DNA of 64,000 nucleotides from Terracidiphilus sp. (lineage in GTDB: Bacteria; Acidobacteriota; Terriglobia; Terriglobales; Acidobacteriaceae): the NCBI GenBank assembly GCA_035315085.1, contig DATFYK010000026.1:1538-65537 (forward strand), written 5' to 3'. This document shows, piece by piece, positions 15,781 to 38,347 of this stretch (positions are counted from its first letter, which is position 1; each line of letters opens with the position of its first letter). The notes below the pieces were generated by a model that did not search any database, was not told the origin of the DNA, and saw nothing but the letters and a program-made list of their open reading frames with translations. Position numbers and translations under genes: made by a program.

Positions 15781-15801
15781 TCCACCCGAAAGGAAGTGTG
15801 C

Positions 15802-17130: not shown

Positions 17131-17168
17131 GAAGTGAGTTACTTATTATATAATAACTGAATAATAAA

Positions 17169-17198
17169 TTGACAAATTCGAACTAGCGCGCCTACCAT
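17169..17198 (+). promoter_or_regulatory. Sigma70-type promoter of the second YCF48-like gene
   Basis: TTGACA-18 bp-TACCAT, preceded by an AT-rich tract. Confidence 0.55.
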
Positions 17199-17219
17199 CC
17201 CACCCGAAAGGAGTTTTAT

Positions 17220-20309: not shown

Positions 20310-20317
20310 TTGGCCAA

Positions 20318-21427
20318 TTAGGATTTCCTACCGGCAAAACCGCCCGCCAGGGTTTCCGGGGTTACGGCTTTGTGGCGGACGTAGTTGCAGGGAGGGACGG
20401 TGTAGCCGCGCAGGAGGGCAATGCCGAGTTGGATGAGGCGCGGGCCGTAAGTTTCGGCTTCGTATGAGATGGAGCCGATGAGGGCGCTTTTGCCGGCGCG
20501 CATCTCGTCAATGGCCTCGGGGATGCAGCCCTGGCCGGCGATGGCGAAGTCCCGCTCGCGGCCGTCCTGGCGGGCGGCGTCGAGAACGCCGAGGGCGCTC
20601 AAATCGGTGGCGGCGGCGACCAGGAAGCGCTGGCCCTTGCGCTGGCCGCGGAGAAAATCGGCGACGATCAACTGGCTGGGCTGGCGCATGCCGCGGCCGT
20701 CGAGTTGGACGAAACGGTCGGCGGGTATATCGGCGAGGCGGTCGCGAATGCCGTCGAAGGCGCCAGTGATGCGGCTCTGGACAAAAGTGCCGGCTTCAGG
20801 GAATCCGACGCCCAGGACCCAATTGACTTTGCCCTTCCATTTGCGCAGGACATGCTGGGCGAGGAGGGAACCGGCTTCATAGCCGGCCTCGAAGTTGTCC
20901 ACGCCGAAGTAGGTGGCGTTGGGGTGGGGCGCGTCGATGGCGACAAGCGGGATGCCGGCTTTGCTGAAGACGCGGGCCACGCGCGGGGCCACATGCTCCC
21001 CGACCTGGAACTCGAGCGCCAGATCGACGCGCCTGGCGACAAACTCTTCGGCGTTCTGGATGGCGATGCCGGGGCCGGAGCGGTTATCGAGGACGAGCAA
21101 TTCGACGCCGGATGCGGCGGCGGCCGCGGTGACGCTCTGGACGACGGCAACTGAGAAGGGCATCTCAGCGCTCTGGGCGGCGAAACCGAAGCGCAGGCGG
21201 CGGGGGCGGGAAACGAGGCGGTAGAGGCCGTCCTGCGCCTGGGCGACATAGCCGCGGTGCACCAGAGTCTTGAGGATGCGGTAGACGCTGGTCTTGGAGA
21301 TGCCGGTCTTCCGGTGGATGTCTTCGAGGGCGACGGGAACGTGGCTATTCTCCAGCAGCTCGAGTACGTCGAGGGCCTTGGAGAGAATGGGAATCAGGTA
21401 GAGCCGTTTGATCTTAGTCCTGGGCAA
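20318..21427 (-). CDS. Transcriptional regulator: IclR-type HTH fused to a periplasmic-binding-protein-like sugar-binding domain
   Basis: LSKALDVLELL...GISKTSVYRILKTLVHRGYV HTH; GIPLVAIDAP..YFGVDNFEAG LacI/RbsB-like domain. Confidence 0.85.
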   Translation of the reverse strand: MPRTKIKRLYLIPILSKALDVLELLENSHVPVALEDIHRKTGISKTSVYRILKTLVHRGYVAQAQDGLYRLVSRPRRLRFGFAAQSAEMPFSVAVVQSVTAAAAASGVELLVLDNRSGPGIAIQNAEEFVARRVDLALEFQVGEHVAPRVARVFSKAGIPLVAIDAPHPNATYFGVDNFEAGYEAGSLLAQHVLRKWKGKVNWVLGVGFPEAGTFVQSRITGAFDGIRDRLADIPADRFVQLDGRGMRQPSQLIVADFLRGQRKGQRFLVAAATDLSALGVLDAARQDGRERDFAIAGQGCIPEAIDEMRAGKSALIGSISYEAETYGPRLIQLGIALLRGYTVPPCNYVRHKAVTPETLAGGFAGRKS

Positions 21428-21449
21428 GCGGTCATCTCGCAGCGCGCAA

Positions 21450-21463
21450 TTTCAATAGTGAAA
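21450..21463. promoter_or_regulatory. Candidate IclR-type operator
   Basis: TTTCA-ATAG-TGAAA inverted repeat just upstream of the regulator start. Confidence 0.45.
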
Positions 21464-21785
21464 CTGTACGCGCTCAAGGATAACGTATTTCAAGCGTAGC
21501 TGTTCACGGCCGGCGCCGGGTTGGCTATTCCAATTCAGATTTTGAGAGCGGACCCCCATGAGGTTCGGGTTCCGTGGCCACGCAGGCGGAATTTGCATTA
21601 GCTCGAGGAAATTGCGGCTTCCCGGAGCGGAGGGCCGTCCTATGGAAGTGGAAGCAAAGTGTATCTGCCGCTAGGCGTCGCGAAGGCGATTGCCGGGCGG
21701 GAGCTCGAGCGCAAGTCCGGCACACGCCCAACCAGAACCGCGGCCTGTGCTTTAGAATTAGCGGGTTCGACATTCAGGAGGCAAT

Positions 21786-24392
21786 ATGCAGCACGTAATG
21801 CAAGGGAAGAGGACGCGGCGCGTCTTTCCGGCCCTGTTCTTGTCCTTCACAGTCTTGATGAGCACCGTCCTGTTTGGCGGGGTGGCGAGCCGGGCGCAGA
21901 GCGCGGACGACGAAAAGAAGATCAACGACACGATTTCGAAGCTCACGCTGGAGGAGAAGATTCATCTGCTCTCCGGTTCGAGCATGATGGCCTCGACGGG
22001 GATTGCCCGGCTGGGGATTCCGGCCTTCCGGATGAGCGACGGGCCGATGGGCGCGCACATTCCGCCGCCGTCGACGGCGTACGCGGCCGGGATCGGTCTG
22101 GCTGCGAGCTGGGACCGGGAGCTGGCGGAGCGGGTCGGGACGCAGATCGGGCGGGATGCGCGGTCGCGCGGCGCCAGCTTCCTGCTAGGGCCGGGAGCGA
22201 ACATTTACCGCGCGCCGCTGAACGGCCGCAACTTCGAGTATTTCGGCGAAGACCCGTTTCTGGCCGGGGAGACGGCGGTGGGCTACATCAATGGAGTGCA
22301 GTCGCAGGGCGTGAGCGCCACGATCAAGCACTATGCGGCCAACAATTCGGAGTACTTCCGCTTTACCGAGGACTCGGTGGTGAGCGAGCGGGCGCTCAGG
22401 GAGATTTATCTGCCCGCGTTCGAGGCCGCGGTGCGCAAGGCCCACGTGGGCGCGATCATGGATTCCTACAACCTGTTGAACGGCGAACACTCGACGCAAA
22501 ACTACCACCTGAACGTGGAGATTGCGAAGCAGCAGTGGGGGTTCGACGGGGTGATGATGTCGGACTGGATGGCGACCCACGACGGCGTGGCGGCGGCCAA
22601 CGCCGGGCTGGACCTGGAGATGCCTTTCGGAATTTACATGAACGAAAAGAGCCTGCTGCCGGCAGTGAAGGACGGCAGGGTGAAGGAATCGGCTATCGAC
22701 GACAAGATCCGGCGGCTGCTGCGGGAGGGATACCGGTTTGGATGGATCGGCCACGACCCGCTGGACGAGAGCATTCCGCGCTATAGCCAGCAGGGACGGC
22801 TGGCGGCGCTCCAAAGCGCGCGCGAGGGGATTGTTCTGCTGAAGAACCAAGGCAACCTGCTGCCCCTGGACCCGGCCAAGGTGAAGACCATCGCGGTGAT
22901 CGGGCCGGACGCCTTCCCGGCGATTCCGACGGCCGGCGGCAGCGGACAGGTTCCCGTCTACTCCGAGGTCAGCGCCCTGAAGGGGATCAGCGACCGGCTG
23001 GGCGTGAACGCCAATGTGCTTTATGACCGGGGAGTTCCCAAGCTGTCGGTGCTGGCCATGCGCTCAGGGTTCAGCCAGTTTGCCGACAAGTTTGTGCCGG
23101 GGCTGACGGTAGAGAGCTTCGACAATCCCGGGTTTACCGGCAAGCCGGTGGCCACAAGGACCGAGATGACGGCGAACGGCGGACAGAACATGATGGATAA
23201 CCCGGATTTGGCGGAGTTGATCAACACGATCAGCGCCGACCAGATGATGGGATTCATGAGCGGGGGCGCAGCCCCGCGATTTAACCGCTGGACGGGCTAC
23301 TATATTGCCCGCGCTCCGGGCAACTATGTGGTGTTTGTCGAGAACCAGGGCAAGTACCGGCTGACGATCGACGGGCAGACGGCGATCGACCACGCGGAGA
23401 TTCCGAAGTTTGCCATGGAACAGACGACGCTGCCGTTGACGCCCGGACCGCACAAGGTGGTGCTGGAAGTTCTGGGCGGCGAGCAATTCACCGGTGAAGC
23501 CATCAAGATCGGCATTGCGCAGGAGGGCACGCTGGTGAACCAGTCGGCCATCGAGCTGGCCAAGCGGGCGGATGCGGTGATCGTGGCCGTGGGCTACGAC
23601 GCGGAGATCGAGACCGAGGGCGCGGATCGCCAGTTCCAACTGCCTCCGGGCCAGGAGGAGCTGATTGAGAAGATCGCGGCGGCGAATCCGAAGACCATTG
23701 TGACGGTGACTTCGGGCGGGAGCGTGGACGCTTCGCGGTGGATCGACCAGGTGGCCGCGCTGCTGGAGAACTGGTATCCGGGCGAGGAGGGCGGAACGGC
23801 GCTGGCTGAGGTGCTGTTTGGCGACGTGAACCCCTCGGGACGGCTGCCCATCAGCTGGGAACGGAGCCTAAAGGACAATCCGTCGTACGCATACTACTAC
23901 CCCACGCCGGGGACGCTGACGATTCCGTACAAGGACGATGTGTTTGTGGGCTACCGGGGCTACGAACACAACGGAGTGAAGCCGCTGTTCCCGTTCGGGT
24001 TCGGGCTGTCGTATACGAGCTTCAAATACTCGGGGCTGAAGATTCACCCGGCCGGCGGGGCGGGGGCTTACGAGGTCAGCTTCGATGTGACCAACACCGG
24101 AACGCGGGCCGGGGCAGACGTGGCCCAGGTGTACGTGAGCGAAGATCACCCCGAGGTTCCGAGGCCGCCGCAGGAGTTGAAGGGCTTTGCGCGGGTGGCG
24201 CTCGGTCCGGGCCAGACGCGCCACGTAACGGTTCCGCTGGATGCGCGGAGCTTCAGTTGGTATGACGAGAAGGCAGCCGCCTGGCACGCCGATGCGGGCA
24301 GCTTCACGGTCCGCGTCAGCCGGTCATCGGCCGATCCGCAACTGGAGGGCAAGGTCAAGCTGGCGCAGGAGATCGTGGCGCCGGTCAAATAG
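21786..24392 (+). CDS. Secreted GH3 beta-glucosidase/xylosidase with PA14 insert and FnIII-like domain
   Basis: SDGPMG, GRNFEYFGEDP, KHYAAN, MSDW nucleophile motif, FVGYRGY, FPFGFGLSYTSF; AGGAGG RBS. Confidence 0.95.
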   Translation: MQHVMQGKRTRRVFPALFLSFTVLMSTVLFGGVASRAQSADDEKKINDTISKLTLEEKIHLLSGSSMMASTGIARLGIPAFRMSDGPMGAHIPPPSTAYAAGIGLAASWDRELAERVGTQIGRDARSRGASFLLGPGANIYRAPLNGRNFEYFGEDPFLAGETAVGYINGVQSQGVSATIKHYAANNSEYFRFTEDSVVSERALREIYLPAFEAAVRKAHVGAIMDSYNLLNGEHSTQNYHLNVEIAKQQWGFDGVMMSDWMATHDGVAAANAGLDLEMPFGIYMNEKSLLPAVKDGRVKESAIDDKIRRLLREGYRFGWIGHDPLDESIPRYSQQGRLAALQSAREGIVLLKNQGNLLPLDPAKVKTIAVIGPDAFPAIPTAGGSGQVPVYSEVSALKGISDRLGVNANVLYDRGVPKLSVLAMRSGFSQFADKFVPGLTVESFDNPGFTGKPVATRTEMTANGGQNMMDNPDLAELINTISADQMMGFMSGGAAPRFNRWTGYYIARAPGNYVVFVENQGKYRLTIDGQTAIDHAEIPKFAMEQTTLPLTPGPHKVVLEVLGGEQFTGEAIKIGIAQEGTLVNQSAIELAKRADAVIVAVGYDAEIETEGADRQFQLPPGQEELIEKIAAANPKTIVTVTSGGSVDASRWIDQVAALLENWYPGEEGGTALAEVLFGDVNPSGRLPISWERSLKDNPSYAYYYPTPGTLTIPYKDDVFVGYRGYEHNGVKPLFPFGFGLSYTSFKYSGLKIHPAGGAGAYEVSFDVTNTGTRAGADVAQVYVSEDHPEVPRPPQELKGFARVALGPGQTRHVTVPLDARSFSWYDEKAAAWHADAGSFTVRVSRSSADPQLEGKVKLAQEIVAPVK

Positions 24393-24523: not shown

Positions 24524-24863
24524 AAAAGTTAGTCCGCTCCCGGTGTTTCTATCGGCAGACGTTCGATTCTGAGATGACATCCTTTTGATCCGGCTTCCAG
24601 GTTCCTTTTTGCAGTGGTCAGGAAAGCGCAGACAAGCACAGGAGCCGGGATATTCTCCCCTGCGGAGATTTTTCCTCCAGTTCATGGCGGAGGCGATTGG
24701 CGGCCGAACGCGGAACGGGTCAGCCGATTATGATACGTTTGGCAATCAGGCTGAATGTTGTGTGACGGCGTGCGGGCAGCATGCCCGGACATTCTTGATA
24801 GGAACCGCAAATTGTGGTGAGTTCGGGGGTTCTTCCCCGAAGAAAGGGTCCAGGAAAACCAGT

Positions 24864-27800
24864 ATGCGTCCCTTGCGTTCGCTTCCACTCAGTCTATTGG
24901 CCAGTGCGTTGCTATGCGCCTCAGCGGCGTTGGCCCAGCAATTCGCACCGACCGCACGGATCGTCAACCCGATCAACGAGAGCCAACTGACAACGCTCAA
25001 GGGCAACACGCACCCGGCGGCCAATGCCAGGAACGACCGCGGCCCGGTGAGCCCGGACCTCCCCATGACCGACCTGATTTTGGTGCTGAGCCGCAGCCCG
25101 GAGCAGCAGGCGGCGTTCGACAAGTTTGTGGCCAGCCAGTACGAGCCTGGCTCGCCCGACTTTCACCATTGGCTTGAGCCTGAGGAAGTGGGCGCGAACT
25201 TCGGTCCCTCCGAGACCGACATCGCGACCATCTCGAAGTGGCTGACGGGGCATGGTTTTTCGATCGACGAAGTAAGCAAGGATCGCATGACGATCCGCTT
25301 CAGCGGGACGGCGGGGCAGGTGGAGAGCGCGTTCCACACCGAGATTCACAACCTGGAAGTGAAGGGCGCGGCGCATATCGGCAACATGAGCGATCCGCAG
25401 ATTCCTGCCGCTCTCGCGCCGGTGGTGGTAGGCGTGAAGGCGCTGCACAACTTCTTCCCTAAGCCGATGCACAAGCTGGGGAGCAAGGTTCAATTCAACA
25501 GCAAGACGGGGAGATGGGAGCGGATCGCGAGTGACGCATCCACGGGAGCCAAGAGTTCCGCTGCTGCCAGGCCACAGGCCGCTCGCCCGCAGTTCGGCAC
25601 GCAGGACTCCTACGGCGACGTGATCGAAGACGTGGCGCCTTACGACTTTGCCGCAATCTACAACGTGCTTCCGCTATGGAATGCGGCCAATCGCATCGAC
25701 GGAACGGGCCAGACCATCGCCATCGTCGGAACCAGCGACATTCTCCCTGCCGACATAGCCACCTTTCGCAGCGCCTTCGGCCTGCCGGCCGTGAAATCGT
25801 TCACGACCATTGTTGCCAATGGCACAGACCCCGGTCAATGCGGCGTGCATCCGACCACATACTGCACGCTCGGCGACCAGATCGAGAATTCGCTGGACGT
25901 GGAGTGGTCGGGAGCAGTGGCTCCGGGCGCCGACCAGGTACTGGTCGTCTCCGGTTCGAACTCGGCGACAACCGACACGGTCTTTTCGTCGGCAAACTAC
26001 ATCATCCAGAACAAGGCGACCGTGAATGCCTCGATCCTGAACGTCAGCTACGGCGAGTGCGAGTTGGGCATGGGCACCAGCGGCAATGTCGCGTATTACG
26101 ACATGTGGCAGACGGCCGCTGCAGAGGGAATTGCCGCCTTCCTGGCTTCGGGCGACTCGGGCTCGGCCAGCTGCGACCAGGGAGGAGATAACGGCGGTCA
26201 AAACCTGCCCTATGTCGCTGAGCTCGGCCTGTCAGTGAGCGGCTTGGCCTCTAGCCCCTACGACACCGCCGTGGGCGGCACCGACTTCAACTGGTGCCCC
26301 GCGTCAGACATCACCTCGGGCACGGCCTGCAAAGCATCGCCCTATTGGAGCGCCTCGAACAACACGACCACGCAGGCCAATGCCCTGGGCTATGTGCCCG
26401 AGATTCCCTGGAACGACAGTTGCGCAAGCGCAACGGGAATTGCCATTGCGCAGTACTATGCAATAGGACTAAGTAAAAACGGCTACTCGACGCCTACTCC
26501 AAACGATGCCGAGACCTCCTGCAACTTCTATGTCCTGAACTATATTACCATTTATGAGTTATCAGGGTATGACATCTCCGGCTTTGTCGATACAGTAGGC
26601 GGCGGCGGCGGCAAGAGCGGGTGCGTTGTCAATAGCACCACCAGCACAACTACCGGGCCAGTTTCCAGTTGCGTCAGCACCACCACCAGCACTGGCACCG
26701 CCAATGGCTCCATTCCTCTTGTCAATGACGGATGGCCCAAGCCCAGTTGGCAGACTAACGCGAACATCCCCGGCCTTCCCAGCGACGGTGTGCGCGATAT
26801 TCCCGACGTCTCCTTCTTTGCGGCGAACGGGTTCAATGAGAGCTCATACCTGATCTGCGTCTCGGCGGCAGGGGTTTGCACGTACACCGGGGACGCCGAC
26901 ACAAATCCGCTGGACATGCAGGAGGTGGGCGGCACCTCGGTCTCATCCCCGGCCATGGCCGGCGTGATGGCGCTGATCAACCAGAAGATCGGCCTGGCGC
27001 AGGGCAACCCCAACTCCGAACTTTACGCCCTGGCGGCCCAGCAGACCTACTCCAGTTGCAGCGCGGAGAGCGTGACTGCTAGCAGCGCCTGCTACTTCAA
27101 CGATATCGACGAGTACACGAACGACCAGCCATGCAACTACAGCGGCCTCTCTCCCAACTGCGTGGCGAGCGAATCCTTTGAAGGGGTAACGGACGAGGTT
27201 GGGCTTCTATCCAACGGCAGCGCAACGGAAGGCGGCTACAACGCAACCCGCGGCTTTGACATGGCCACCGGCCTGGGATCGCTGAACGTGGCCAACGTGG
27301 TGAATGGCTGGACGTCGTTGATCGGCACTGCGACGGCTAGCGTGACAGTGACGCCGGCGTCATCCAGCCTGCAAGTGAATACCGCCTTGAGCGTGACGGT
27401 GACGGTGGCCAGCGTACCCGCCGGCGGGACAACGCCGACCGGGACGGTTGCGCTGTCGGGCGGCGGCCTCAACCCCATCCTGACGGGGACGCTTTCCAGC
27501 GGCAGCTACACCTTCACGATTCCTGCCTTCAGCCTGAGTGGCGGAACCGACACTCTTACGGCCACCTACAGCGGGGACTCGACTTACGCCCAGGAGAGCG
27601 GGACGGCAAGCGTGACAGTGACCAAGGTGACGGCGACGGTGACGGTGCAGCCGTCCCCGACCACGGTCGGCACGAACACGATCGTCGTTGTGCAGGCCAC
27701 TGTGACTGGGACCGGTCCGACGCCGACCGGGACGGTGCAACTGACGGGCGGCGGCTATACATCGGGGGCGTGCACGCTTGCGAGCGGCGCCTGCACGATC

Positions 27801-28727
27801 AACATTCCAGCCAACAGTCTGAGCAACGGAACCGATACTTTGACCGTTGCCTACAGCGGAGACTCGAACTACAACGCGGCGAGCGGGACGGCGACGGTTA
27901 CAGTGAACATACTGTGGCCGACAGTGACGGTGACGCCGGCGGCGAACAGTGTGGAGTCGGGATCGAGCCTGACCGTGACGGGCACGGTAAGCGGCACGGG
28001 GCCAACGCCGACCGGGACGGTACAACTGACGGGCGGCGGGTACCTCTCGGCGGCAGCGACGCTTTCGAGCGGCAGCTACTCCGTCACCATTCCGGCTAAC
28101 AGCCTGAGCACCGGAAGCGATACGCTGACCGTTTATTACAGCGGAGATATCAACTACGCCACAGGCACGGGAACGGCAAGCGTGACGGTGACGCAATCGA
28201 TATACGCGCTGGCGGCGACCACGCCGGCCGCAATCACTCCCGGAGGGACCGCGACTTCAACCGTCACGGTGAGTTCTTCCACCGGCTATTCGGGAACCGT
28301 CACGCTCAGTTGTGCACTGACCACGTATCCCAACGGGGCGACGGATCTGCCCACCACCTGCTCCGGCGTCAACACGACGCAGTCGGTGGGTGGGAGCGGA
28401 GCAACCTTCACGGTGTATACGACTGCGGCCAGCAGTGAGCTGGTGTGGCCTAAGCTGGGCAACGGCAAGGGCTGGGCTGGAGCGGGCGGCGGCGCGGTTC
28501 TGGCATTCCTGCTGTTCCTGGGGATTCCGGCGCGGCGGCGCAGTTGGCGGTCGATGCTAGGGGTGTTGGCTGTGATGGCCGCGCTGGGCAGCCTGGCCGG
28601 TTGCGGCGGTGGCGGTGGAGGCAATTCTGGGACGACGGCCGGCAGCTACACCTTTACGGTGACCGGAACCGGCACTCCCGCGGTCACGCCGGCACCCACA
28701 ACCACGTTTACGGTGACAGTGAATTAG
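24864..28727 (+). CDS. S53 (sedolisin/kumamolisin) protease with pro-domain, Ig-like repeats and C-terminal TM/lipobox cassette
   Basis: Signal peptide from ATG 24864 (CAGGA RBS); catalytic ENSLD, SGDSG, GGTS; Ca-site GFDMATGLG; YSGD Ig repeats. Confidence 0.92.
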   Translation: MRPLRSLPLSLLASALLCASAALAQQFAPTARIVNPINESQLTTLKGNTHPAANARNDRGPVSPDLPMTDLILVLSRSPEQQAAFDKFVASQYEPGSPDFHHWLEPEEVGANFGPSETDIATISKWLTGHGFSIDEVSKDRMTIRFSGTAGQVESAFHTEIHNLEVKGAAHIGNMSDPQIPAALAPVVVGVKALHNFFPKPMHKLGSKVQFNSKTGRWERIASDASTGAKSSAAARPQAARPQFGTQDSYGDVIEDVAPYDFAAIYNVLPLWNAANRIDGTGQTIAIVGTSDILPADIATFRSAFGLPAVKSFTTIVANGTDPGQCGVHPTTYCTLGDQIENSLDVEWSGAVAPGADQVLVVSGSNSATTDTVFSSANYIIQNKATVNASILNVSYGECELGMGTSGNVAYYDMWQTAAAEGIAAFLASGDSGSASCDQGGDNGGQNLPYVAELGLSVSGLASSPYDTAVGGTDFNWCPASDITSGTACKASPYWSASNNTTTQANALGYVPEIPWNDSCASATGIAIAQYYAIGLSKNGYSTPTPNDAETSCNFYVLNYITIYELSGYDISGFVDTVGGGGGKSGCVVNSTTSTTTGPVSSCVSTTTSTGTANGSIPLVNDGWPKPSWQTNANIPGLPSDGVRDIPDVSFFAANGFNESSYLICVSAAGVCTYTGDADTNPLDMQEVGGTSVSSPAMAGVMALINQKIGLAQGNPNSELYALAAQQTYSSCSAESVTASSACYFNDIDEYTNDQPCNYSGLSPNCVASESFEGVTDEVGLLSNGSATEGGYNATRGFDMATGLGSLNVANVVNGWTSLIGTATASVTVTPASSSLQVNTALSVTVTVASVPAGGTTPTGTVALSGGGLNPILTGTLSSGSYTFTIPAFSLSGGTDTLTATYSGDSTYAQESGTASVTVTKVTATVTVQPSPTTVGTNTIVVVQATVTGTGPTPTGTVQLTGGGYTSGACTLASGACTINIPANSLSNGTDTLTVAYSGDSNYNAASGTATVTVNILWPTVTVTPAANSVESGSSLTVTGTVSGTGPTPTGTVQLTGGGYLSAAATLSSGSYSVTIPANSLSTGSDTLTVYYSGDINYATGTGTASVTVTQSIYALAATTPAAITPGGTATSTVTVSSSTGYSGTVTLSCALTTYPNGATDLPTTCSGVNTTQSVGGSGATFTVYTTAASSELVWPKLGNGKGWAGAGGGAVLAFLLFLGIPARRRSWRSMLGVLAVMAALGSLAGCGGGGGGNSGTTAGSYTFTVTGTGTPAVTPAPTTTFTVTVN

Positions 28728-28827: not shown

Positions 28828-29057
28828 AGAAGTTTGTCCCTCCCGGTGTTTCTGTTGCGGGTTTTTTCCTCCAGTTCATGGCGGAGTCGATTGCCGGCCG
28901 GACTCGCAACGGGTCAGCCGATTATGATACCTTTGGCATCCAGGCAAATTGTCAAGCGCCGGCGTGCGGGAAACATGCCAGGACATGCTTGATTGGAACC
29001 GCAACTTTTTCCTCCGCTAGGGGGATTTTTTCCGAAGAAAGGCACAGGAATACCACT

Positions 29058-32000
29058 ATGCTTACTCTGCGTTTGCGTTCCCTTTGTGTATTGGCCGGTG
29101 CATTGCTGTGCGTTACGGCAGCGATGGCCCAGAACCCCGCACCCGCCGCACGGATCGTCAATCCGATCGACGAGAGCCAACTGAAAACGCTCAAGGGCAC
29201 CATGCATCCGCTGGCCAACGCCAAGAACGACCGCGGAGCCGCGGCAGACAGCACGCAGCTCAACCGCATGCATCTGGTTCTGACGCGCAGCGCCAGCCAG
29301 GAAACGGCCCTGCGGCAACTGATGGGCGAGCTGCACACGCCGGGCACCGCCAACTACCACAAGTGGCTGACGCCGGCCGAGTTCGGCAAGCAGTTCGGTC
29401 CCTCCGACGAGGACATCGCGACCGTTGAAACCTGGCTGACCGGGCACGGCTTCAGCGTCACGAAGGTCAATCCAGGGAAGCAGACCATCGAGTTTTCGGG
29501 CAACGTGGCCCAGTTTCGCAGCGCCTTCCATGCCCAGATTCATCAATATGAAGTGAACGGCCAGACCCATTACGCGAACGCGAGCGATCCGCAGATTCCG
29601 GCGGCGCTGGCGCCCGTGGTGGGCGGATTCGTCTCGCTGAACAACTTCCAGCTGAAGCACCCTATCAAGGTGCTCGGCAAGGCCATGTACGATCCGAAAA
29701 CAGACAAGGCCACGCCTGAGTGGAGCTGGGGCACGAGCGCTGGCGTCAATTATGTGCTTGCACCGGGCGACTATGCCGTCCAGTACGACATCGCTCCGCT
29801 CTATAACGCGACCCCGGCGATCAACGGCAGCGGCCAGGCCATCGCCATCGTCAACCCTTCCAACCTCAACATGGGCGTGGTGAATTCGTTCCGCAGCCTT
29901 TTTGGTCTTCCGTACAATCCGCCGCAGGTGATCATCGACGGCAACGACCCGGGGGTGAATGGAATCAACAATCCCGACGGCCAAAACGGCTGGGGGGTCG
30001 AATCCTACCTGGATGTGGAGTGGGCGGGAGCGGTCGCGCCCAACGCCATTGTCTATCTGGTCACCGCCGGCGACACGGAGACGGAAAACGGCCTGATTCT
30101 GGCCGCGGAGCACGCCATCTACGGCAACGTTGCACCCATCATCAGCGTGAGCGTGGGCGAATGCGAAAAGTACCTGGGCAGCTCCAACCAGTTCATCTAC
30201 AATCTCTGGGAGCAAGCCGCCGCGCAGGGAATCACTGTAATGATTTCCTCCGACGACAACGGCTCCGCCGGATGCGACAACTTCGATTCGCAGTACTATG
30301 CGGTCGGCGGCCAGGCGGTCAGCGGCTTTACCTCCACGCCGTTCAATGTCTCCGTGGGCGGAACGGACTTCTATTACAGCGACTGGGCGAGTGGCGGGGC
30401 CAGCATCGCAAACTACTGGAACACGACTCCCACCCAGATGCCCGCGGTTTCGCTGAAAAGCGTCATCCCCGAACAGCCCTGGAACGACAGCCAGTATGGC
30501 CTGAACATCTATAACGCGTTGACCGAGTCCGGCGACACGTATTCCACCATTGCGGCAGGCAGCGGCGGCGCCAGCAATTGCGTCACTGGCTCCGGCACGG
30601 GCACCTATGGCGGCTGGGCTACCTGCACCGCCGGGTATCCGAAGCCCTCGTGGCAGACCGCGGCGGCGGGAATCGGCGTGCCGAGCGACGGGGTGCGCGA
30701 CATACCCGATGTCTCGCTCTTTGCCGCCAACGGAGACAACTACAGCTTCTATCCCCTCTGCGCCGAAGATGGCGACTGCCAGACGCCATCGGGGAGCAAT
30801 CTAGTTCAGATCAGCGGCGTCGGCGGCACCTCCGCTTCGTCTCCGGCATTTGCGGGCATCATGGCGCTGGTCAATCAGCAATATGGACGCCAGGGGCAGG
30901 CGGACTTTGTGCTCTATCCTTTGGCGAAGCAGTACCCGGCGGCTTTCCATGACGTGACGGTTGGCACCAACTCCGTGCCCTGCTCTTACTCGCCAAGCAC
31001 GCCCGACTGCATCGCTGTCGCCAACCCCGTTGTCATCGACGATCCCTACTATGGTTCGGCGACGGAAGGCCAGATCGGCACCGGCACGACCCCGGAATAT
31101 AACGCCAAAGCGGGATACGATCTGGCCAGCGGGCTGGGGACGATCGACGCCAATGTTCTGGTGAGCGACTGGAACAAGGTCACCTTCGCTGCCAGCACGA
31201 CTACGCTGACGCCCTCCTCGACCAGCTTCGCCCACGGAACCGCGATCACGGTGAGCGGCACAGTGACCGGCAGCGGGACGCCGAGCGGCGAGGTGGCGCT
31301 AATGACCAGCAGCACGGAACCGGTGCAGCAGGGGCAGGGTTTCTCCGGGTTGTTCAATAGCAGTGTTGCCAGCACCTTTACCCTCAGCGGCGGAGCTTTC
31401 AGCGGCAGCGTGAGCACCTTACCGGGCGGCACCTACAACATCTGGGGCTCTTACAGCGGCGATGGCACGAATGGCATGAGCACCTCCACGCCGGTTCAGA
31501 TCACCGTGAGCCCGGAGAACAGCAACCTGGCTTTCAACATTTACACGGCCAGCGGCACGTATACTTCCACCGCGCCCCCCGGAAGCAATGTCGATTACGG
31601 GACGCAATTTTTGCTCAGCGCCACGCCCTCTCGCGCCGCGGGAGGTTCGGGGTACACGATTCCCACGGGAACGGTGACCTTCACGGATACTCTAGCTGGC
31701 TCTGGGCTGCCAAACACGGCGGTGATCAATGCCGAGGGGGAGGCGGAATTCAATGCGCCGTTCTCCGTGGGCGCGCACTCGGTGACGGCCAGTTACAGCG
31801 GGGACAGCAGCTACAACGCGAAGACAGCCGCTGCAATCCCCTTTACCGTGGTGAAGGACACGCCGTTGCTCAATCTGGTCACTTCGTTCCTAACGAATGG
31901 CGAAGCGATCAACGGCACTGGCCAGCCGACAGTGCTTACCGTCCAGATAGAAAACGGTGTCCAGAGTTCCAACTCAAGTGTGACGAGTTATGTTCCTGTC

Positions 32001-33764
32001 CAGATAGCCGCGCCAACGGGCACTGTGACCGTGACCGGGTTGCCTTCCGGCACACCCACCACCGGCACCTTGAGCCCAGGGGTGGACCCCGGTACCGGAG
32101 CCCAGTGGGGGGTAGTCAACTTCATCATCCCTGCAGGCACGGCTAGCGGAACCTATCCCGTCACGGTCAGCTACGGCGGAGATGGGAATTACAACTCCAA
32201 CTCGCAGAGCTACGCAATACCCGTCGCGAACACGAGCACAAGCGGCCTGCTGAACTCCACCACCATCGCAACCATGTCCGGGAGCATCTCGCCGACCACC
32301 ACTATTACCATCACCGGAACGGTAACCGGCCAGATTGGACACCCGGCGCCCACGGGCACGGTCAACCTCTACGTGAACGGCTACTATGAATCGATCAGTT
32401 TGTCACCGGGCACCGGGGATGTATCGAACTTTTATCTCACATTGAGCAGTTCGGGCATCCTCCAGGGAACGAACTTAATCACGTTCCAGTACAACGGCGA
32501 CAGCGTCTACAATCCCTCCGCCTACCAACTGAGCGCCGTCTCCAACCCGCTTTCGGACTTCACGCTGGCGCCGGAGTTCACGATTGTTCCCATCAGCATG
32601 AGCGGTGGCACCGGCAGTGGGACGGATACGATTAACCTGGCGTCAGTGAATGGCTTCAGCGGCAGTGTTGCCCTTACCTGCACAGCGGCTTTGGGCGTCA
32701 CCTGTTCGATTCCGGCGAGTGAGAACCTGACGAGCGGCGGCAGCGGAACGGCAACGCTCACCATCAACGCCGGGGAATATACGCCCAACCTGAGCTATAA
32801 CGTGCTGGTCACCGGAACGGATCCCACGGGAAAGTACGTTCACACGCTGGGGATTACGGCGGTGGTCAGCGGCTCAGCGGTGGGCTCCACGAGCTTCTTC
32901 CTCAGCAACAGCGGCAACATCACCGTGAGCCCCGGCGCCACAACCGGCAACACCTCGACCATTACCGTAACGCCTTTGGGCGCGTTTACCGGCACAGTGG
33001 ACCTGACCTGCGCGGTAGTGGGCCCGACGGGGGCGACCAGCCCGGCAACGTGCACCGTTCCGGCCTCGGTTACGATCAGCAGCTCGACAGCGCAAACAGC
33101 CACGCTGACTGTCAACACCACCTCCACAACCACCGCGGGAGCGTACACGGTGACGGTCACGGGCACGTCAGGGTCCATTACGCAGACCACCATCGTAACG
33201 GTCAGCGTGGGCACCCCGAGTTTTGCTCTTGCCAACAGCGGCAACATCACTGTGATGCAGGGTTCGACAAGCGGCAACACCTCGACAATTACCGTAACGC
33301 CGTCGTATGCGTTTACCGGAACAGTCAACCTGAGCTGCGCCATTACCCCAACGGCCGCCAGCCATCCGGCGACGTGCATTGTTCCGGCTTCGGTTACGAT
33401 CAGCGGCTCGGCCGCGCAGACGGCTACGCTGACGGTATACACCACGGCGTCTACCACGTCGGAGAACCAGATGAAGAAACTGTTCTGGCCATCGGCCGGC
33501 GGAGCCACTCTGGCGCTGGTGTTGTTCCTCGGCATCCCGAAACGGCGGCGTAACTGGCTGGCGATGCTCGGGCTGCTGGTCCTGTTTGCTTCTGTTGGCG
33601 CTCTCGGTTGCGGCGGCGGCGGAGGAGGCGGAGGTGGAGGTGGCAACAACGGCACCACACCCGGGACTTACACGGTGACCGTGACCGGAACTTCGGGGAC
33701 GGGCGCTTCGGCTATCACGCAAACCACCGCTGTAACACTTACCGTGAACGCACCCTTGCCGTGA
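29058..33764 (+). CDS. Second S53 protease with pro-domain, Ig-like repeats and C-terminal TM/lipobox cassette
   Basis: Signal peptide from ATG 29058; ESYLD, SSDDNG, GGTS, GYDLASGLG; multiple Ig repeats. Confidence 0.92.
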   Translation: MLTLRLRSLCVLAGALLCVTAAMAQNPAPAARIVNPIDESQLKTLKGTMHPLANAKNDRGAAADSTQLNRMHLVLTRSASQETALRQLMGELHTPGTANYHKWLTPAEFGKQFGPSDEDIATVETWLTGHGFSVTKVNPGKQTIEFSGNVAQFRSAFHAQIHQYEVNGQTHYANASDPQIPAALAPVVGGFVSLNNFQLKHPIKVLGKAMYDPKTDKATPEWSWGTSAGVNYVLAPGDYAVQYDIAPLYNATPAINGSGQAIAIVNPSNLNMGVVNSFRSLFGLPYNPPQVIIDGNDPGVNGINNPDGQNGWGVESYLDVEWAGAVAPNAIVYLVTAGDTETENGLILAAEHAIYGNVAPIISVSVGECEKYLGSSNQFIYNLWEQAAAQGITVMISSDDNGSAGCDNFDSQYYAVGGQAVSGFTSTPFNVSVGGTDFYYSDWASGGASIANYWNTTPTQMPAVSLKSVIPEQPWNDSQYGLNIYNALTESGDTYSTIAAGSGGASNCVTGSGTGTYGGWATCTAGYPKPSWQTAAAGIGVPSDGVRDIPDVSLFAANGDNYSFYPLCAEDGDCQTPSGSNLVQISGVGGTSASSPAFAGIMALVNQQYGRQGQADFVLYPLAKQYPAAFHDVTVGTNSVPCSYSPSTPDCIAVANPVVIDDPYYGSATEGQIGTGTTPEYNAKAGYDLASGLGTIDANVLVSDWNKVTFAASTTTLTPSSTSFAHGTAITVSGTVTGSGTPSGEVALMTSSTEPVQQGQGFSGLFNSSVASTFTLSGGAFSGSVSTLPGGTYNIWGSYSGDGTNGMSTSTPVQITVSPENSNLAFNIYTASGTYTSTAPPGSNVDYGTQFLLSATPSRAAGGSGYTIPTGTVTFTDTLAGSGLPNTAVINAEGEAEFNAPFSVGAHSVTASYSGDSSYNAKTAAAIPFTVVKDTPLLNLVTSFLTNGEAINGTGQPTVLTVQIENGVQSSNSSVTSYVPVQIAAPTGTVTVTGLPSGTPTTGTLSPGVDPGTGAQWGVVNFIIPAGTASGTYPVTVSYGGDGNYNSNSQSYAIPVANTSTSGLLNSTTIATMSGSISPTTTITITGTVTGQIGHPAPTGTVNLYVNGYYESISLSPGTGDVSNFYLTLSSSGILQGTNLITFQYNGDSVYNPSAYQLSAVSNPLSDFTLAPEFTIVPISMSGGTGSGTDTINLASVNGFSGSVALTCTAALGVTCSIPASENLTSGGSGTATLTINAGEYTPNLSYNVLVTGTDPTGKYVHTLGITAVVSGSAVGSTSFFLSNSGNITVSPGATTGNTSTITVTPLGAFTGTVDLTCAVVGPTGATSPATCTVPASVTISSSTAQTATLTVNTTSTTTAGAYTVTVTGTSGSITQTTIVTVSVGTPSFALANSGNITVMQGSTSGNTSTITVTPSYAFTGTVNLSCAITPTAASHPATCIVPASVTISGSAAQTATLTVYTTASTTSENQMKKLFWPSAGGATLALVLFLGIPKRRRNWLAMLGLLVLFASVGALGCGGGGGGGGGGGNNGTTPGTYTVTVTGTSGTGASAITQTTAVTLTVNAPLP

Positions 33765-33797: not shown

Positions 33798-33836
33798 CGC
33801 ATGGGCCCTTCCTTCGGGAAGGGCCCATGCGTTTTT
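33798..33836 (+). terminator. Intrinsic terminator (between convergent S53 gene and kdpC)
   Basis: CGCATGGGCCCTTCC-TTCG-GGAAGGGCCCATGCG followed by TTTTT. Confidence 0.9.
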
Positions 33837-33878: not shown

Positions 33879-34499
33879 CTATTTGGCGATCTTGTCGAGG
33901 GCGAGGTTCAGGTCGAGGACGTTGACGCGGGGTTCGCCGAGGAGGCCGAGCTGGCGGGTGGTGGTGTGTTGCTGGATGAGCTTGCGTACTGTGTCTTCGC
34001 TCAGGTTGCGGGCTTTGGCGACGCGAGGCGCCTGGAAGAAGGCGGCGTCGGGGGTGATGTCGGGATCGAGGCCGGAGGCGGACATGGTGACCAGGTCGAT
34101 GGGCACGGGTTTGCCGGGGTTCTCGGCGGCCAGCTTGTCGATGGAGCCCTGGATGCGGTCGACGAGGGCCTTGCTGGATTGGGCCAGGTTGGAGCCGCCC
34201 GAGGAGGTGGCGTCGTAGCCGTTGCCTGCGGCCGAGGGGCGGGGATGGAAGTATTTGTCGGAGGTGAAGCTCTGCGCCAGCAGCTCGGAGCCGATGATCT
34301 GGCCGTCTTTGAGGATGAGGCTTCCGGCAGCCTGGTGCGGAAAGATGAGGCCGGCGATGCCGGTGACGACGAGCGGATAGCCGAGGCCCAGCAGGAGCGT
34401 GGTTACGATGGTGAAGAGAATCGAGGTCTTCCAGACGGAATGCATGGCCGATGCGGCCGGCGGTTTTGCAGCGGGAGCCAGAGTAGATGTGGAATGCAC
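33879..34499 (-). CDS. kdpC: K+-transporting ATPase subunit C
   Basis: YPLVVT, GSELLAQ, YFHPRPSA, SGGSN, SASGLDPDI, GEPRVNVL. Confidence 0.96.
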   Translation of the reverse strand: MHSTSTLAPAAKPPAASAMHSVWKTSILFTIVTTLLLGLGYPLVVTGIAGLIFPHQAAGSLILKDGQIIGSELLAQSFTSDKYFHPRPSAAGNGYDATSSGGSNLAQSSKALVDRIQGSIDKLAAENPGKPVPIDLVTMSASGLDPDITPDAAFFQAPRVAKARNLSEDTVRKLIQQHTTTRQLGLLGEPRVNVLDLNLALDKIAK

Positions 34500-34537
34500 G
34501 GTGAATCTCCTTGCGGGGCGGGACGCAGCCCCTGTGT

Positions 34538-36571
34538 TTACGCCAGGTGCACGGCTACCAGGAACATGTCGATGGCCTTGATGCCGAAGAACGGGATGAT
34601 GATGCCGCCCACGCCGTAGAACAGCAGGTTATTGCGCAGCAGGATATCGGCGGCCTTGGGCTCGTACTTGACGCCTTTGAGGGCCAGCGGGATGAGGGCC
34701 ACGATGATCAGCGCGTTGAAGATGACCGCGGAGAGGATGGCCGACTGGGGCGAGTGCAGGAACATGATGTTGAGCGCACCCAGCACCGGGAAGACGCCGG
34801 CGAACATGGCGGGGATGATGGCGAAGTACTTGGCCACGTCGTTGGCGATGGAGAAGGTGGTGAGCGCACCGCGGGTCATGAGGAGCTGCTTGCCGATCTC
34901 GACGATCTCGATGAGCTTGGTGGGGTTGGAGTCCAGATCGACCATGTTTCCGGCTTCTTTCGCGGCTTGCGTGCCGGAGTTCATGGCCACGCCCACATCG
35001 GCCTGGGCCAGGGCGGGAGCGTCGTTGGTGCCGTCGCCGGTCATGGCCACCAGCTTGCCCTTGCTCTGCTCGCGCTTGATGAGGTCCATCTTGTCCTTGG
35101 GCTTGGCCTCGGCCAAAAAGTCGTCGACGCCTGCCTCGCGGGCAATGACGGCGGCGGTGAGCGGGTTGTCGCCGGTAATCATAATGGTGCGGATGCCCAT
35201 GGCACGCAGGCGGGCGAGGCGCTCCTTGAGGCCTCCCTTGACGATGTCCTTGAGATAGATGACGCCCAGAGCGGCGGCGTTTTCGGCCACGACCAGAGGC
35301 GTGCCGCCGGCGCGGGCGATCTCTTCCACCTGTTCGCGGACCTTCTGGGGCAACTGCGATCCCTGCTCCTCGAGGAAGCGGGCGATGGCGTCTACGGAGC
35401 CTTTGCGGATGCGCGCGCCAGGCATGTTGACGCCGCTCATGCGGGTCTGTGCGGTGAAGGGCACGAACTCGGCGTGAATGCCGGCCAGATCGCGGCCGCG
35501 CAGGTTGTACAATTCCTTGGCCAGAACGACGATGGAGCGGCCTTCGGGGGTTTCGTCGGAGAGCGAGGCGAGTTGCGCGGCGTTGGCGAGGCGCTCATGG
35601 CTGACGTCGGGCGCGGGGAAGAACTCGGTGGCCTGGCGATTGCCGAGGGTGATGGTGCCGGTCTTGTCGAGCAGCAGGGTGTTCACGTCGCCGGCGGCTT
35701 CAACGGCGCGCCCGCTCATGGCCAGGACGTTGTACTGGACCAGCCGGTCCATGCCTGCGATGCCGATGGCCGAAAGCAAGCCGCCGATGGTGGTGGGAAT
35801 GAGGCAGACCAGCAGCGAGACCAGCACGAAGATAGTCTGCGGGGCCTTGGAGTACATGGCGAAGGGCTGCAGCGTGACCACGGCCAGCAGAAAGACGATG
35901 GTCAAGCCGGAGAGCAAGATGCTGAGGGCGATCTCATTGGGAGTCTTCTGGCGAGTGGCGCCCTCGACCAGGGCGATCATGCGGTCGAGGAAGGTTTCGC
36001 CGGGGTTGGAGGTGATGCGGACCTTGATCCAGTCGGAGAGAACTTTCGTTCCGCCGGTGACAGCGGAGCGGTCGCCGCCGGCTTCGCGGATGACGGGAGC
36101 GGACTCGCCGGTGATGGCCGACTCGTCCACCGAAGCCACGCCCTCGATGACCTCGCCGTCGCCGGCGATGTAACTGCCGGCTGCAACGTAGATCACGTCG
36201 CCCAGGCGGAGCAGGCCGCTGGCGACCTCTTCAAAGCCGCCGCTGGCGGTGTAGCGCTGGGCAATGGTCTCGCCCTTGGCCTTGCGCAGGGTGTCAGCCT
36301 GGGCTTTGCCGCGGCCTTCGGCCATGGCCTCGGCAAAGTTGGCGAAGAGCACCGTGAACCACAACCAGAGAGTGATCTGGAGGTTGAAGCCGAAGCCGGG
36401 GCGGTGGTTGACGATGTTGTCGATGAGCAGCGCCGAGGTGAGCACGCTGCCCACCTCGACCACAAACATCACCGGGTTCTTGACCATCCAGCGTGGATCG
36501 AGCTTACGCACCGAGTCCAGCGTTGCCTGGACAATGATTTTCGTGTTCCAAAGACTCTTTTTTTCAAGCAT
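34538..36571 (-). CDS. kdpB: K+-transporting P-type ATPase subunit B
   Basis: [37 protein letters not shown]. Confidence 0.98.
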
Positions 36572-36607
36572 GACAGTCCGTTTCGCCTTGTCCTGATGCG
36601 GTATCGG

Positions 36608-38347
36608 TTAGAAGAGCTGTCCCGCCTTAAGCAGCAGGTGTTCCAGAATCGGTCCCAGGCTCAAGGCCGGGAAGAAGGTGAGCGCGCCGACAATCACGAC
36701 CACGCCGACCAGCAACACGGTAAACAGGGCGGTATTGACCGGAAAGGTGCCCAGCGAGGGAGGGACGCTCTTCTTGCTGGCCAGGTTGCCAGCCAAAGCC
36801 AGCACCGGGATCGACATCAAGAAGCGGCCGATCAGCATGTCCCAACCGAGGGCGACGTTGTACCACCACTGAGTGGTGGGATTGACGGGGATGTTGAGTC
36901 CGGCAAAAGCCGAACCATTGTTGCCCGCGCCCGAGGTAAAGGCGTAGAGAATCTCGGAAAACCCGTGCGGCCCCTGATTGGTGAGCGCGGAGAGGCCGAT
37001 GGTGGGCGAGAGCACGAAGATGGCGGTGAAGGTGAGGATGATGAGCGGGAAGATGAGCACGTAGAGCATGGACATCTTCACGTCGTAGGCTTCGATTTTC
37101 TTGCCCAGGTATTCAGGCGTGCGGCCCACCATGAGGCCGGCAATGAAGACAGAGAGCACCACCATGATCAGCATGCCGTAAAGGCCGGAGCCAACGCCGC
37201 CGAAGACCACCTCGCCAAGCATGATGTTGGAGAGCACCACCATGCCGCCGAGGGGAGTGAGCGAGTCGTGCATGCTGGTTACGGCGCCGCAACTGGCGTC
37301 GGTGGTGATGGTGGCGAAGAGGGCCGATTCGGCGATGCCGTTGCGGACCTCCTTGCCTTCCATGTTGCCGGCGGGAGCGGTAGCGGTGCCGGTTTGCGCC
37401 GCGCCGTGAATGAGCGGATGCGGATGCGACTCGGCCCAGTAGACGGTCGCGAATCCGGCGGCAAAGAGCACATACATGGCGGCCAGCACGGCCCAGCCGT
37501 GGCCCGGCGAGCCGGTCATGCGGCCCAGCGTATAGGTGAGCCCCGCGGGGATGATGAAGATCGACAGGATCTGCAGGAAGTTCGAAAACGGCGTGGGATT
37601 CTCGAAGGGATGGGCGCTGTTGGCATTGGTGAATCCGCCGCCGTTGGTGCCCAGCATTTTGATGGCTTCCTGGGAGGCGACGGGACCCTGCGCTATGGTC
37701 TGCGTCTGGCCTTCCAGCGTATGGGCCTGGGTGTAGGCGCGCAGGTTCTGCGGAACCCCCTGGCCCACGAGGAGCAGCGCGTAGATCAGTGAGGCGGGCA
37801 GGAGCACGTAGAGCAGGGTGCGCGTCATGTCCACCCAGAAGTTGCCGATCATTCCGGATACGGTTCGCTTGATGCCGCGGATGAGGGCCAGGGCCACCAC
37901 GATGCCGCCCGCCGCTGACCAGAAGTTATGCGTGGCGAGGCCGGCCATCTGGGTGAGATAGCTCATGGTGGTTTCGGGCGTATACGACTGCCAGTTGGTG
38001 TTGGTGGTAAAGCTGGCAGCCGTGTTCCAGGCCAGGTCTGGTCCCACCGCGGCCAGTCCCTGGGGGTTGAAGGGCAACAGTGCCTGCAATCGCTCGATGG
38101 CGTAGGTGGCCAGCAGAGTCACCGCCGCGAAGCCCAGCATGGCATAGGCGTACTCACGCCAGTTCATTTCCTTGTCTGCGTTGACGCCGCACAGCCTGTA
38201 GATGAGTCGTTCGATGGGGCGGAGGACCGGATCCAGCCAGGTGCGTTCACCCTCGAAAACGCGGGCCAGATAGATGCCCACGGGACGAACGGTTGCCAGC
38301 AGAATCAGAGAGTAGATGGCAAACTGCAACCAGCCGTTGGCGGACAT
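36608..38347 (-). CDS. kdpA: K+-transporting ATPase subunit A
   Basis: SFTTNTNWQSY, GTNGGG, ASCGA, FGGVGSG, GRTPEYLGKK, NNGSAFAG. Confidence 0.98.
   Translation of the reverse strand: MSANGWLQFAIYSLILLATVRPVGIYLARVFEGERTWLDPVLRPIERLIYRLCGVNADKEMNWREYAYAMLGFAAVTLLATYAIERLQALLPFNPQGLAAVGPDLAWNTAASFTTNTNWQSYTPETTMSYLTQMAGLATHNFWSAAGGIVVALALIRGIKRTVSGMIGNFWVDMTRTLLYVLLPASLIYALLLVGQGVPQNLRAYTQAHTLEGQTQTIAQGPVASQEAIKMLGTNGGGFTNANSAHPFENPTPFSNFLQILSIFIIPAGLTYTLGRMTGSPGHGWAVLAAMYVLFAAGFATVYWAESHPHPLIHGAAQTGTATAPAGNMEGKEVRNGIAESALFATITTDASCGAVTSMHDSLTPLGGMVVLSNIMLGEVVFGGVGSGLYGMLIMVVLSVFIAGLMVGRTPEYLGKKIEAYDVKMSMLYVLIFPLIILTFTAIFVLSPTIGLSALTNQGPHGFSEILYAFTSGAGNNGSAFAGLNIPVNPTTQWWYNVALGWDMLIGRFLMSIPVLALAGNLASKKSVPPSLGTFPVNTALFTVLLVGVVVIVGALTFFPALSLGPILEHLLLKAGQLF

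Follow-up and report, generated by a model that had tools for sequence, protein, structure and literature searches.

The C-terminal tail of a large S53 protease from Terracidiphilus sp. (Acidobacteriaceae) combines an internal lipoprotein-type signal with an immunoglobulin (Ig)-like domain, and almost certainly belongs to NCBIfam family NF058595 ("invert_tail"), the lipo-invert putative C-terminal anchoring domain. The protease is encoded in the 64,000 nucleotides of contig DATFYK010000026.1 that were analysed (positions 1,538 to 65,537, assembly GCA_035315085.1; called the window below). Near the end of the protein, a stop-transfer-like helix, a basic turn and a second helix ending in a lipobox Cys are inserted into the last Ig-like domain, and only the final two beta-strands of this domain follow the Cys. 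We consider lipo-invert anchoring, with the Cys as the site of lipid attachment, the best explanation of this layout, with a probability of about 60%. The family has already been catalogued, so that this gene itself adds little; NF058595 is known from sequence, and the name lipo-invert represents the hypothesis of its curator.

Layout of the tail and family assignment

The features of the protein and of its tail are listed in Table 1. The two last Ig-like repeats are close paralogs: repeat A and the start of repeat B share 73% identity over 81 residues (E 2e-32), and this similarity breaks off exactly after ...TTASTT. Repeat A is uninterrupted and was used as the natural insert-free counterpart of repeat B. 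In repeat B, the Arg cluster between the two membrane helices (TM1 and TM2) is followed by 70 residues, and about 50 residues remain after the Cys. All elements of the tail were found in the window sequence where the initial annotation had placed them, and its proposal of an internal lipoprotein-type signal behind a stop-transfer-like helix proved appropriate for this protein.

Table 1. Features of the S53 protease gene, of its C-terminal tail and of the adjoining region (positions of the window)
Feature	Position	Strand	Remarks
Coding sequence of the S53 protease (sedolisin/kumamolisin-type)	29058..33764	+	1568 residues; open reading frame, domain matches and start of an orthologue
Repeat A, uninterrupted Ig-like repeat	32892..33218	+	
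Repeat B before the insert: first five to seven strands of the last Ig-like domain	33219..33458	+	ends in ...TLTVYTTASTT
Short linker (SENQMKK) and TM1 (LFWPSAGG...LGIP)	33459..33539	+	TM1 at 33480-33539; stop-transfer-like hydrophobic helix
KRRR basic turn	33540..33551	+	presumed to face the cytoplasm
TM2, h-region of the internal lipoprotein-type signal	33552..33608	+	lipobox end G-A-L-G
Lipobox Cys codon (TGC)	33609..33611	+	residue 1518 of 1568
Run of 11 Gly, flexible tether after the Cys	33612..33644	+	
Last two beta-strands of the Ig-like domain	33645..33761	+	NNGTTPGTYTVTVTG... to ...VTLTVNAPLP
Stop codon of the S53 protease	33762-33764	+	
Intrinsic-terminator-like hairpin	33798..33831	+	15-bp stem and T run
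Tandem upstream paralogue, second S53 protease	24585..28727	+	Pro-kuma_activ and Big_3_5 repeats (Pfam)
Lipo-invert tail of the upstream paralogue	28401-28724	+	profile match C26:29938-30261, 58.9 bits

When the protein was scanned against NCBIfam (release 20.0, June 2026), NF058595 matched residues 1454-1564 over profile positions 1-113 of 113, with 77.7-83.1 bits (E about 1e-22), and a profile search of the genome gave 84.6 bits on the same tail. The curated cutoff of this family is 37 bits. The match stops 4 residues short of the C-terminus, and the order of parts that defines a lipo-invert tail (helix, basic cluster, helix with lipobox, Cys, beta-strands) is found here. A Pfam scan of the protease left the insert region without any match. 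The tail and NF058595 share the order of parts, the extreme C-terminal position and the taxon (Acidobacteriaceae), and there is no structural difference between them. The initial annotation had known of no described sorting signal with this layout. This has to be withdrawn, as NF058595 covers the tail end to end; an existing family for the motif had been stated there as a finding that would take away the novelty. Its account of the layout, the Cys, the diversity of cargo and the modelled completion of the Ig-like domain stands, while the claimed novelty and a likeness to rhombosortase substrates do not.

The tether after the Cys is encoded by a run of GGC, GGA and GGT codons, and close orthologues have 8-12 Gly. 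The tether length thus looks polymorphic at the sequence level, perhaps via slippage.

Conservation of the Cys and its surroundings

The lipobox Cys is the sole invariant column in an alignment of 88 tails (last Ig-like domain plus insert). It is also kept in all 31 tails that were collected by genome searches. Both the invariance of the Cys and the position of the insert inside the last Ig-like repeat had been predicted initially; the latter was found in every case when the tails were compared. Among the 31 tails, position -1 is occupied by Gly (16), Ala (10) or Ser (5), and position +2 by Gly (23), Ala (4), Ser (3) or Asn (1), never by Asp. The basic cluster lies 15-26 residues ahead of the Cys (median 19).

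A set of 151 tails was compared with a PS51257-like lipoprotein rule, reading each tail from its first basic residue as if this were the N-terminus. The rule was applied in what we take to be the form of the PROSITE rule. It was passed by 143 of these tails, and the other 8 miss it narrowly, at positions -2 to -4. The fragment of the S53 protease that starts at KRRR passes as well, with the Cys at position 24. Over the 151 tails, the median position of the Cys is 24 and the median net charge of the loop is +4. Between 34 and 70 residues (median 45) follow the Cys, starting with a stretch restricted to G, S, T, N, P, A and Q that has a median length of 19 residues.

Two further Cys residues in the Ig part (C40 and C53) are at least 90% conserved in the alignment of 88 tails; their pattern fits a disulfide outside the cytoplasm. 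The tail of the S53 protease represents a subtype in which the motif LFWPSxGG...G[IV]P-RRRR-NW is sharply conserved (120 homologues), and this subtype occurs across unrelated cargo.

Structure prediction of the last Ig-like domain

The last Ig-like domain and its insert were modelled as a monomer with AlphaFold2 from an alignment of 88 rows. The mean predicted local distance difference test score (pLDDT) is 87.4 and the predicted template modelling score is 0.71. Residues 1-80 of the model have a pLDDT of 93-98, and the same range applies to the strands within residues 2-74, which represent the part of repeat B ahead of the insert. Residues 141-180 reach 92-98 and contain the two post-Cys strands (149-159 and 166-177). 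The insert is modelled as a helical hairpin with helices at 92-105 and 113-128 (pLDDT 61-79).

Upon comparison with 48,161 PDB representatives, the model behaves as a single Ig-like sandwich: 95-110 residues are aligned across a span from residue 1 to residues 177-181 (Z 10-12, root-mean-square deviation (rmsd) 2.0-2.5); the target domains are contiguous and about 100 residues long. The best matches are 1eut_A (Z 12.1, rmsd 2.0, 97 residues aligned) and 8jmw_A (Z 11.7, rmsd 2.5, 105 residues aligned). The assessment of strand pairing relied on pLDDT, on secondary structure and on the extent of the fold alignments. In this model, the post-Cys strands are part of the preceding Ig-like domain, as was already implied by the paralogy to repeat A. 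The packing of these strands into the domain, as anticipated in the initial annotation, is thus seen in the AlphaFold2 model at a pLDDT of 92-98.

Repeat B was also predicted as two chains, the part before the insert and the post-Cys peptide (alignments A2 and A3). The pair passed the mark with a score of 0.54; the best of 3 controls scored 0.02. In the benchmark, 58 of 80 solved complexes but also 2 of 110 mismatched pairs passed, and scores of 0.60 or less were obtained by only 7 of those 80 solved complexes and by both of these mismatched pairs. At least 95% of contacts are common to the runs, with a partner pLDDT of 67 or more. The pass may reflect only a likeness to solved Ig domains, the two chains being halves of one Ig fold.

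Distribution and cargo

The host assembly (3.03 Mb, 75.6% complete) codes for five tails, four of which score above the NF058595 cutoff, while one is divergent. In an even sample of 401 genomes from the phylum, the tail was found in all 33 Acidobacteriaceae genomes, often in at least 10 copies; many of these genomes have at least 11 scored matches. Two more families of the same class carry the tail (1 of 1 sampled genome each). The rest of the sample gave single matches only, most of them marginal.

A protein database search with the tail region retrieved, among proteins of 862-2744 residues, 1115 matches at E <= 1e-3, and the full layout is present in all of the top 120 of these. The cargo of the listed proteins includes S53 proteases, a C1A cysteine protease and FG-GAP, IPT/TIG, Kelch, PhoD-like, chitobiase-C and PF22612 proteins. 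The tail is thus attached to many unrelated cargo domains among the top 120 of the 1115 matches, in line with what was expected from the first inspection of the sequence. The nearest proteins have Terracidiphilus, Acidicapsa and Candidatus Sulfotelmatobacter as source names. On the sequence evidence, the layout is not a product of chance, because the profile match is full-length, five genes in the host genome and more than 1000 database proteins share it, and the Cys is invariant.

Acidobacteriaceae, which are abundant in soil, secrete numerous large hydrolases and adhesin-like proteins or expose them on the cell; in a single genome, the lipo-invert tail can occur on ten or more of these.

The divergent fifth tail of the host (C67:67568-71557) scores 33 bits, which is below the cutoff. 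It retains the order WTRRR, helix, GLMA-C, and 70 residues follow the Cys. The next gene (C67:71746-74694) codes for an ordinary N-terminal lipoprotein-like protein that starts ...PNGC-GSGGNN. A rhomboid-family gene (C93:49211-49651) is found about 4 kb from another tail-bearing gene (C93:42546-45155), which is probably coincidence. In genome G383, from another family of the phylum and the source of one of the single matches, one protein (C14:122900-123900) has the full layout, with shorter helices, a RARVR loop and IVAG-C. The tail is thus also met sporadically beyond the Acidobacteriaceae.

Proposed anchoring mechanism

We infer topology, lipidation, both cleavages, non-covalent tethering and final location from the data above, which leads to the following proposal, in our view the most economical account of the tail. 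The N-terminal Sec signal would export the protease and the Ig repeats (approximately 1450 residues) until TM1 halts the transfer, with KRRR remaining in the cytoplasm. TM2 would re-insert with its N-terminus in and its C-terminus out, carrying the last 50 or so residues outwards. The two halves of the last Ig-like domain would meet outside the inner membrane and fold together. TM2 and the lipobox would be read as an internal signal-peptidase-II signal: Lgt would put diacylglycerol on the invariant Cys, LspA would cut before this Cys, and Lnt would acylate the new amino group. The resulting lipopeptide of about 50 residues would retain the cargo, its two strands being integral to the Ig sandwich, and would provide a lipid anchor at the C-terminal end of the protease. 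To free the cargo from the TM1-loop-TM2 hairpin, as export to the outer membrane would require, some protease would have to cut once more, close to the GG in the first part of TM1. This second site is perhaps formed by the small residues and Pro/Gly found there, which resemble a rhomboid substrate. Transfer of the complex to the outer membrane would then fall to Lol and possibly to a surface-export route.

The steps of this proposal differ in strength. From the sequence, lipidation at the Cys is probable, while for cleavage by LspA before the Cys the odds are only slightly favourable. That the cargo is tethered by the donated strands has an even chance. A second cut at TM1 is doubtful. The complete version, a split-domain anchor in which both LspA and a second membrane protease cut and the enzyme is held only by an acylated peptide of about 50 residues that completes its Ig domain, is put forward tentatively, with the odds somewhat against it. 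That the chain would be cut at the Cys and held together afterwards is suggested because the signal is located inside the fold in every case and exactly the last two strands follow the Cys. An uncut chain would be anchored equally well by a helix after the domain, and the internal placement is therefore the strongest argument for cleavage.

If the mechanism is true, the universal lipoprotein pathway would be put to a new use, in which the signal is internal and a shared fold holds the anchor, and the lipo-invert tail might serve as a surface-display tag. We know of no experimental demonstration of a non-covalent strand-donating lipopeptide anchor in any organism.

Points against the mechanism and candidate enzymes

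Several points weigh against lipo-invert anchoring. Its weak spot is the fate of TM1: a cut by LspA alone would leave the cargo on the membrane hairpin, so that the model needs an extra protease. No natural internal signal-peptidase-II signal is known to us. A literature search found no paper on "lipo-invert" or "internal lipobox" and none that shows lipidation or cleavage of a family member. The two-chain prediction of the Ig halves lends weak support to their pairing. TM1 is not uniform, as about 9 of the 31 diverse tails use a YAxWLxLxG-type helix instead; the two types of TM1 could be two recognition classes or simply two lineages. Finally, no enzyme or partner gene that tracks the tail was found in sequence searches for rhombosortase, exosortase, Lgt-like proteins and downstream genes.

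The enzyme searches covered 41 Acidobacteriaceae genomes; two of those counted, G402 and G421, are unpublished, and all conclusions hold without them. Rhombosortase (TIGR03902) stays below its cutoff of 84 bits in all 41 genomes (39 of 39 without G402 and G421), with a best score of 58.3 bits and 34.3 bits in the host genome. It was rejected as the enzyme acting on TM1, and the likeness to GlyGly-CTERM/rhombosortase systems that had been suggested initially cannot be upheld. An exosortase gene is present in the host genome and in 25 of the 41 genomes (25 of 39 without G402 and G421). The searches did not find it in two genomes of 100% completeness, G048 and G062, which have 6 and 9 tail matches, respectively. 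Exosortase was dismissed as the tail enzyme and, from this gene distribution, is dispensable for the tail.

A divergent Lgt-like paralogue of the host (C104:1052-1918) was considered as a dedicated transferase. It shares 35% identity with canonical Lgt, reaches 55 bits where the TIGR00544 cutoff is 118.9 bits, and has EQLG in place of the canonical GRIG; by eye, the Arg of the GRxG motif is missing. At E <= 1e-50, a threshold at which more distant orthologues could be missed, it retrieved orthologues only within the same genus, from 3 of 4 other genomes. This candidate was discarded, being genus-confined at that threshold while the tail is family-wide. A downstream partner gene was likewise rejected: the S53 protease gene is followed only by a terminator and the convergent kdpC gene, and no plausible partner gene follows the other tails of the host genome. 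In a comparison of 30 other tail loci (1.5-kb flanks, blastp, a weak test), no downstream partner gene was recurrent; 3 orthologous loci of the 30 share a downstream open reading frame, which is an FAD (flavin adenine dinucleotide) oxidoreductase.

A regular-expression search of six-frame open reading frames, which set N-terminal lipoprotein signals of the host against TM2 and its lipobox, was too noisy in this GC-rich genome. A few clear host lipoproteins with starts of the C-GGS or C-GSGG type were nevertheless seen.

Alternative explanations

The main competitor of lipo-invert anchoring is an uncut hairpin of TM1 and TM2 in the inner membrane. The Ig-like domain would be intact, the protease would be kept on the periplasmic side of this membrane, and the Cys would be only S-lipidated or conserved for another reason. 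Such a hairpin would suffice as an anchor, its loop with a charge of +4 obeys the positive-inside rule, and the searches for rhombosortase, exosortase and Lgt-like candidates found no dedicated processing enzyme. We nevertheless consider it unlikely, although it deserves attention. A simple C-terminal helix would do the same, which leaves the constant placement inside the last hairpin of the Ig-like domain unexplained. It also offers no reason why the one residue that never varies should be the Cys of a complete lipobox that has a small residue at -1. Moreover, the cargo (polymer-degrading enzymes and adhesin-like proteins) is expected at or beyond the outer membrane.

The resemblance of TM1 to GlyGly-CTERM and PEP-CTERM tags, which share with it a short motif (GG), a hydrophobic stretch and an Arg cluster, raises the question of a sortase-type tag. 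TM1 would be the signal, a rhombosortase or exosortase would cut it and attach the cargo to a lipid or polymer, and the remainder of the tail would have an accessory role. By eye, GG, the hydrophobic stretch and RRR do look alike, the host has an exosortase gene, and generic rhomboids are encoded in 41 of 41 Acidobacteriaceae genomes. This explanation is very improbable given the enzyme distribution described above (rhombosortase in 0 of 41 genomes, at best 58 bits; exosortase in 25 of 41 only and not found in the complete genomes G048 and G062). In addition, the NCBIfam scan did not report any GlyGly-CTERM or PEP-CTERM model at E <= 1, a PEP motif is not present in the tail of the S53 protease, and TM1 is not terminal but has 70 more residues after it. 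On sequence grounds, the tail is not a GlyGly-CTERM or PEP-CTERM tag. Marginally less credible still is that the hairpin is excised and the cargo re-ligated covalently to the lipidated Cys, which would result in a continuous Ig-like domain whose last loop bears a lipid at its tip. That the insert lies precisely in a loop, which repeat A shows can be short, is all that speaks for it; this scheme is pure inference, and the rhombosortase and exosortase searches gave no transpeptidase candidate. We know of no precedent for excision and re-ligation of this kind.

An assembly or fusion artefact, or a decaying gene, in which the end of a gene with a C-terminal tag is fused to the start of a lipoprotein gene, might be suspected since TM2, lipobox and Gly run alone resemble an ordinary lipoprotein start, such as that of the gene at C67:71746. 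Recurrence refutes this reading, to which we attach hardly any weight: the in-frame layout is found in 151 tails from many genomes and with many kinds of cargo, always with 34-70 residues after the Cys, and a full-length orthologue with 93% identity exists.

Comparison with known systems

Lipo-invert anchoring would rely on the components of a lipoprotein (signal peptidase II) signal. The tail shares with such signals a basic n-region, an uncharged h-region, a lipobox with a small residue at -1, the Cys and a Gly/Ser-rich tether. The genes of the Lgt, LspA and Lnt pathway are also present in the host genome (profile scores: LspA 134.8, Lgt 181.4, Lnt 320.8 and LolA 70 bits). It differs in its position, at residues 1495-1518 (approximately) of 1568 rather than at the N-terminus, where the protein has a separate Sec-type signal. 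Also, the signal follows a first membrane helix, and the "mature lipoprotein" would have only about 50 residues.

The nearest published analogue, by comparison of the layouts, is MYXO-CTERM with its myxosortase MrtX. This C-terminal tag of a Gram-negative phylum features a membrane helix, an Arg-rich cytoplasmic end and an invariant Cys for which lipidation is predicted, and each genome has dozens of unrelated surface proteins that bear it (PMC11980579). In MYXO-CTERM, a single helix comes after the Cys, the protein stops with the tag, and cleavage is by a CPBP protease (PMC11980579). In lipo-invert, however, the Cys comes after the second helix, within a classical lipobox, and part of a folded domain lies behind it; the phylum is a different one.

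Donor-strand complementation in chaperone-usher pili (e.g. of the SafA-SafB type) has the underlying idea in common: strands of a second chain complete an Ig-like fold, and the resulting non-covalent link is very stable. Chaperone folds occur among the fold matches of the AlphaFold2 model. In lipo-invert, in contrast, two strands would be donated, these would come from the same precursor after cleavage, there is no chaperone or usher, and the outcome would be lipid anchoring rather than polymerisation. By analogy, the likeness would be one of mechanism only.

The protease gene and its surroundings

The S53 protease consists of an N-terminal Sec-type signal peptide, a pro-kumamolisin activation domain, the catalytic domain, Big_3_5/Ig-like repeats and the lipo-invert tail. 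The open reading frame opens at 28878 (+) and ends at 33764. The start is assigned to the ATG at 29058 (MLTLRL) rather than to 28878, because an orthologue of 1567 residues with 93% sequence identity begins at the same Met. This orthologue is encoded in a Terracidiphilus metagenome-assembled genome and is named protease pro-enzyme activation domain protein at NCBI. The signal-like N-terminus ends in AMA-Q.

The Pfam scan identified Pro-kuma_activ (PF09286, 115.7 bits) and Big_3_5 (92.5 bits). The first 720 residues match kumamolisin (1t1e, E 1.5e-18) and TPP1 (3edy, E 1.6e-12), and the serine motif GGTSASSP can be read in the sequence. With an activation domain and a sedolisin-type catalytic domain, the cargo has the characteristics of peptidase family S53, and this label is sound as judged from sequence similarity.

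From its sequence, the terminator-like hairpin downstream of the gene is predicted to close the protease transcription unit. The next genes are kdpC, kdpB and kdpA of a potassium-pump operon (33879-38347, (-)), which is convergent to the protease gene (KdpC: 248 bits).

The tail inserts of the tandem S53 pair have diverged (GIPARRRSW... in the upstream paralogue versus GIPKRRRNW...), so that the tail would not have been duplicated recently.

The region upstream of the S53 pair (15796-24392) contains genes for other exported proteins that degrade or bind polymers. Two of these code for BNR/sortilin-like proteins (15796-17130 and 17220-20309) and one for a GH3 glycosidase with Fn3-like and PA14 domains (21786-24392). 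An IclR/periplasmic-binding-type regulator is encoded at 20318-21427 (-).

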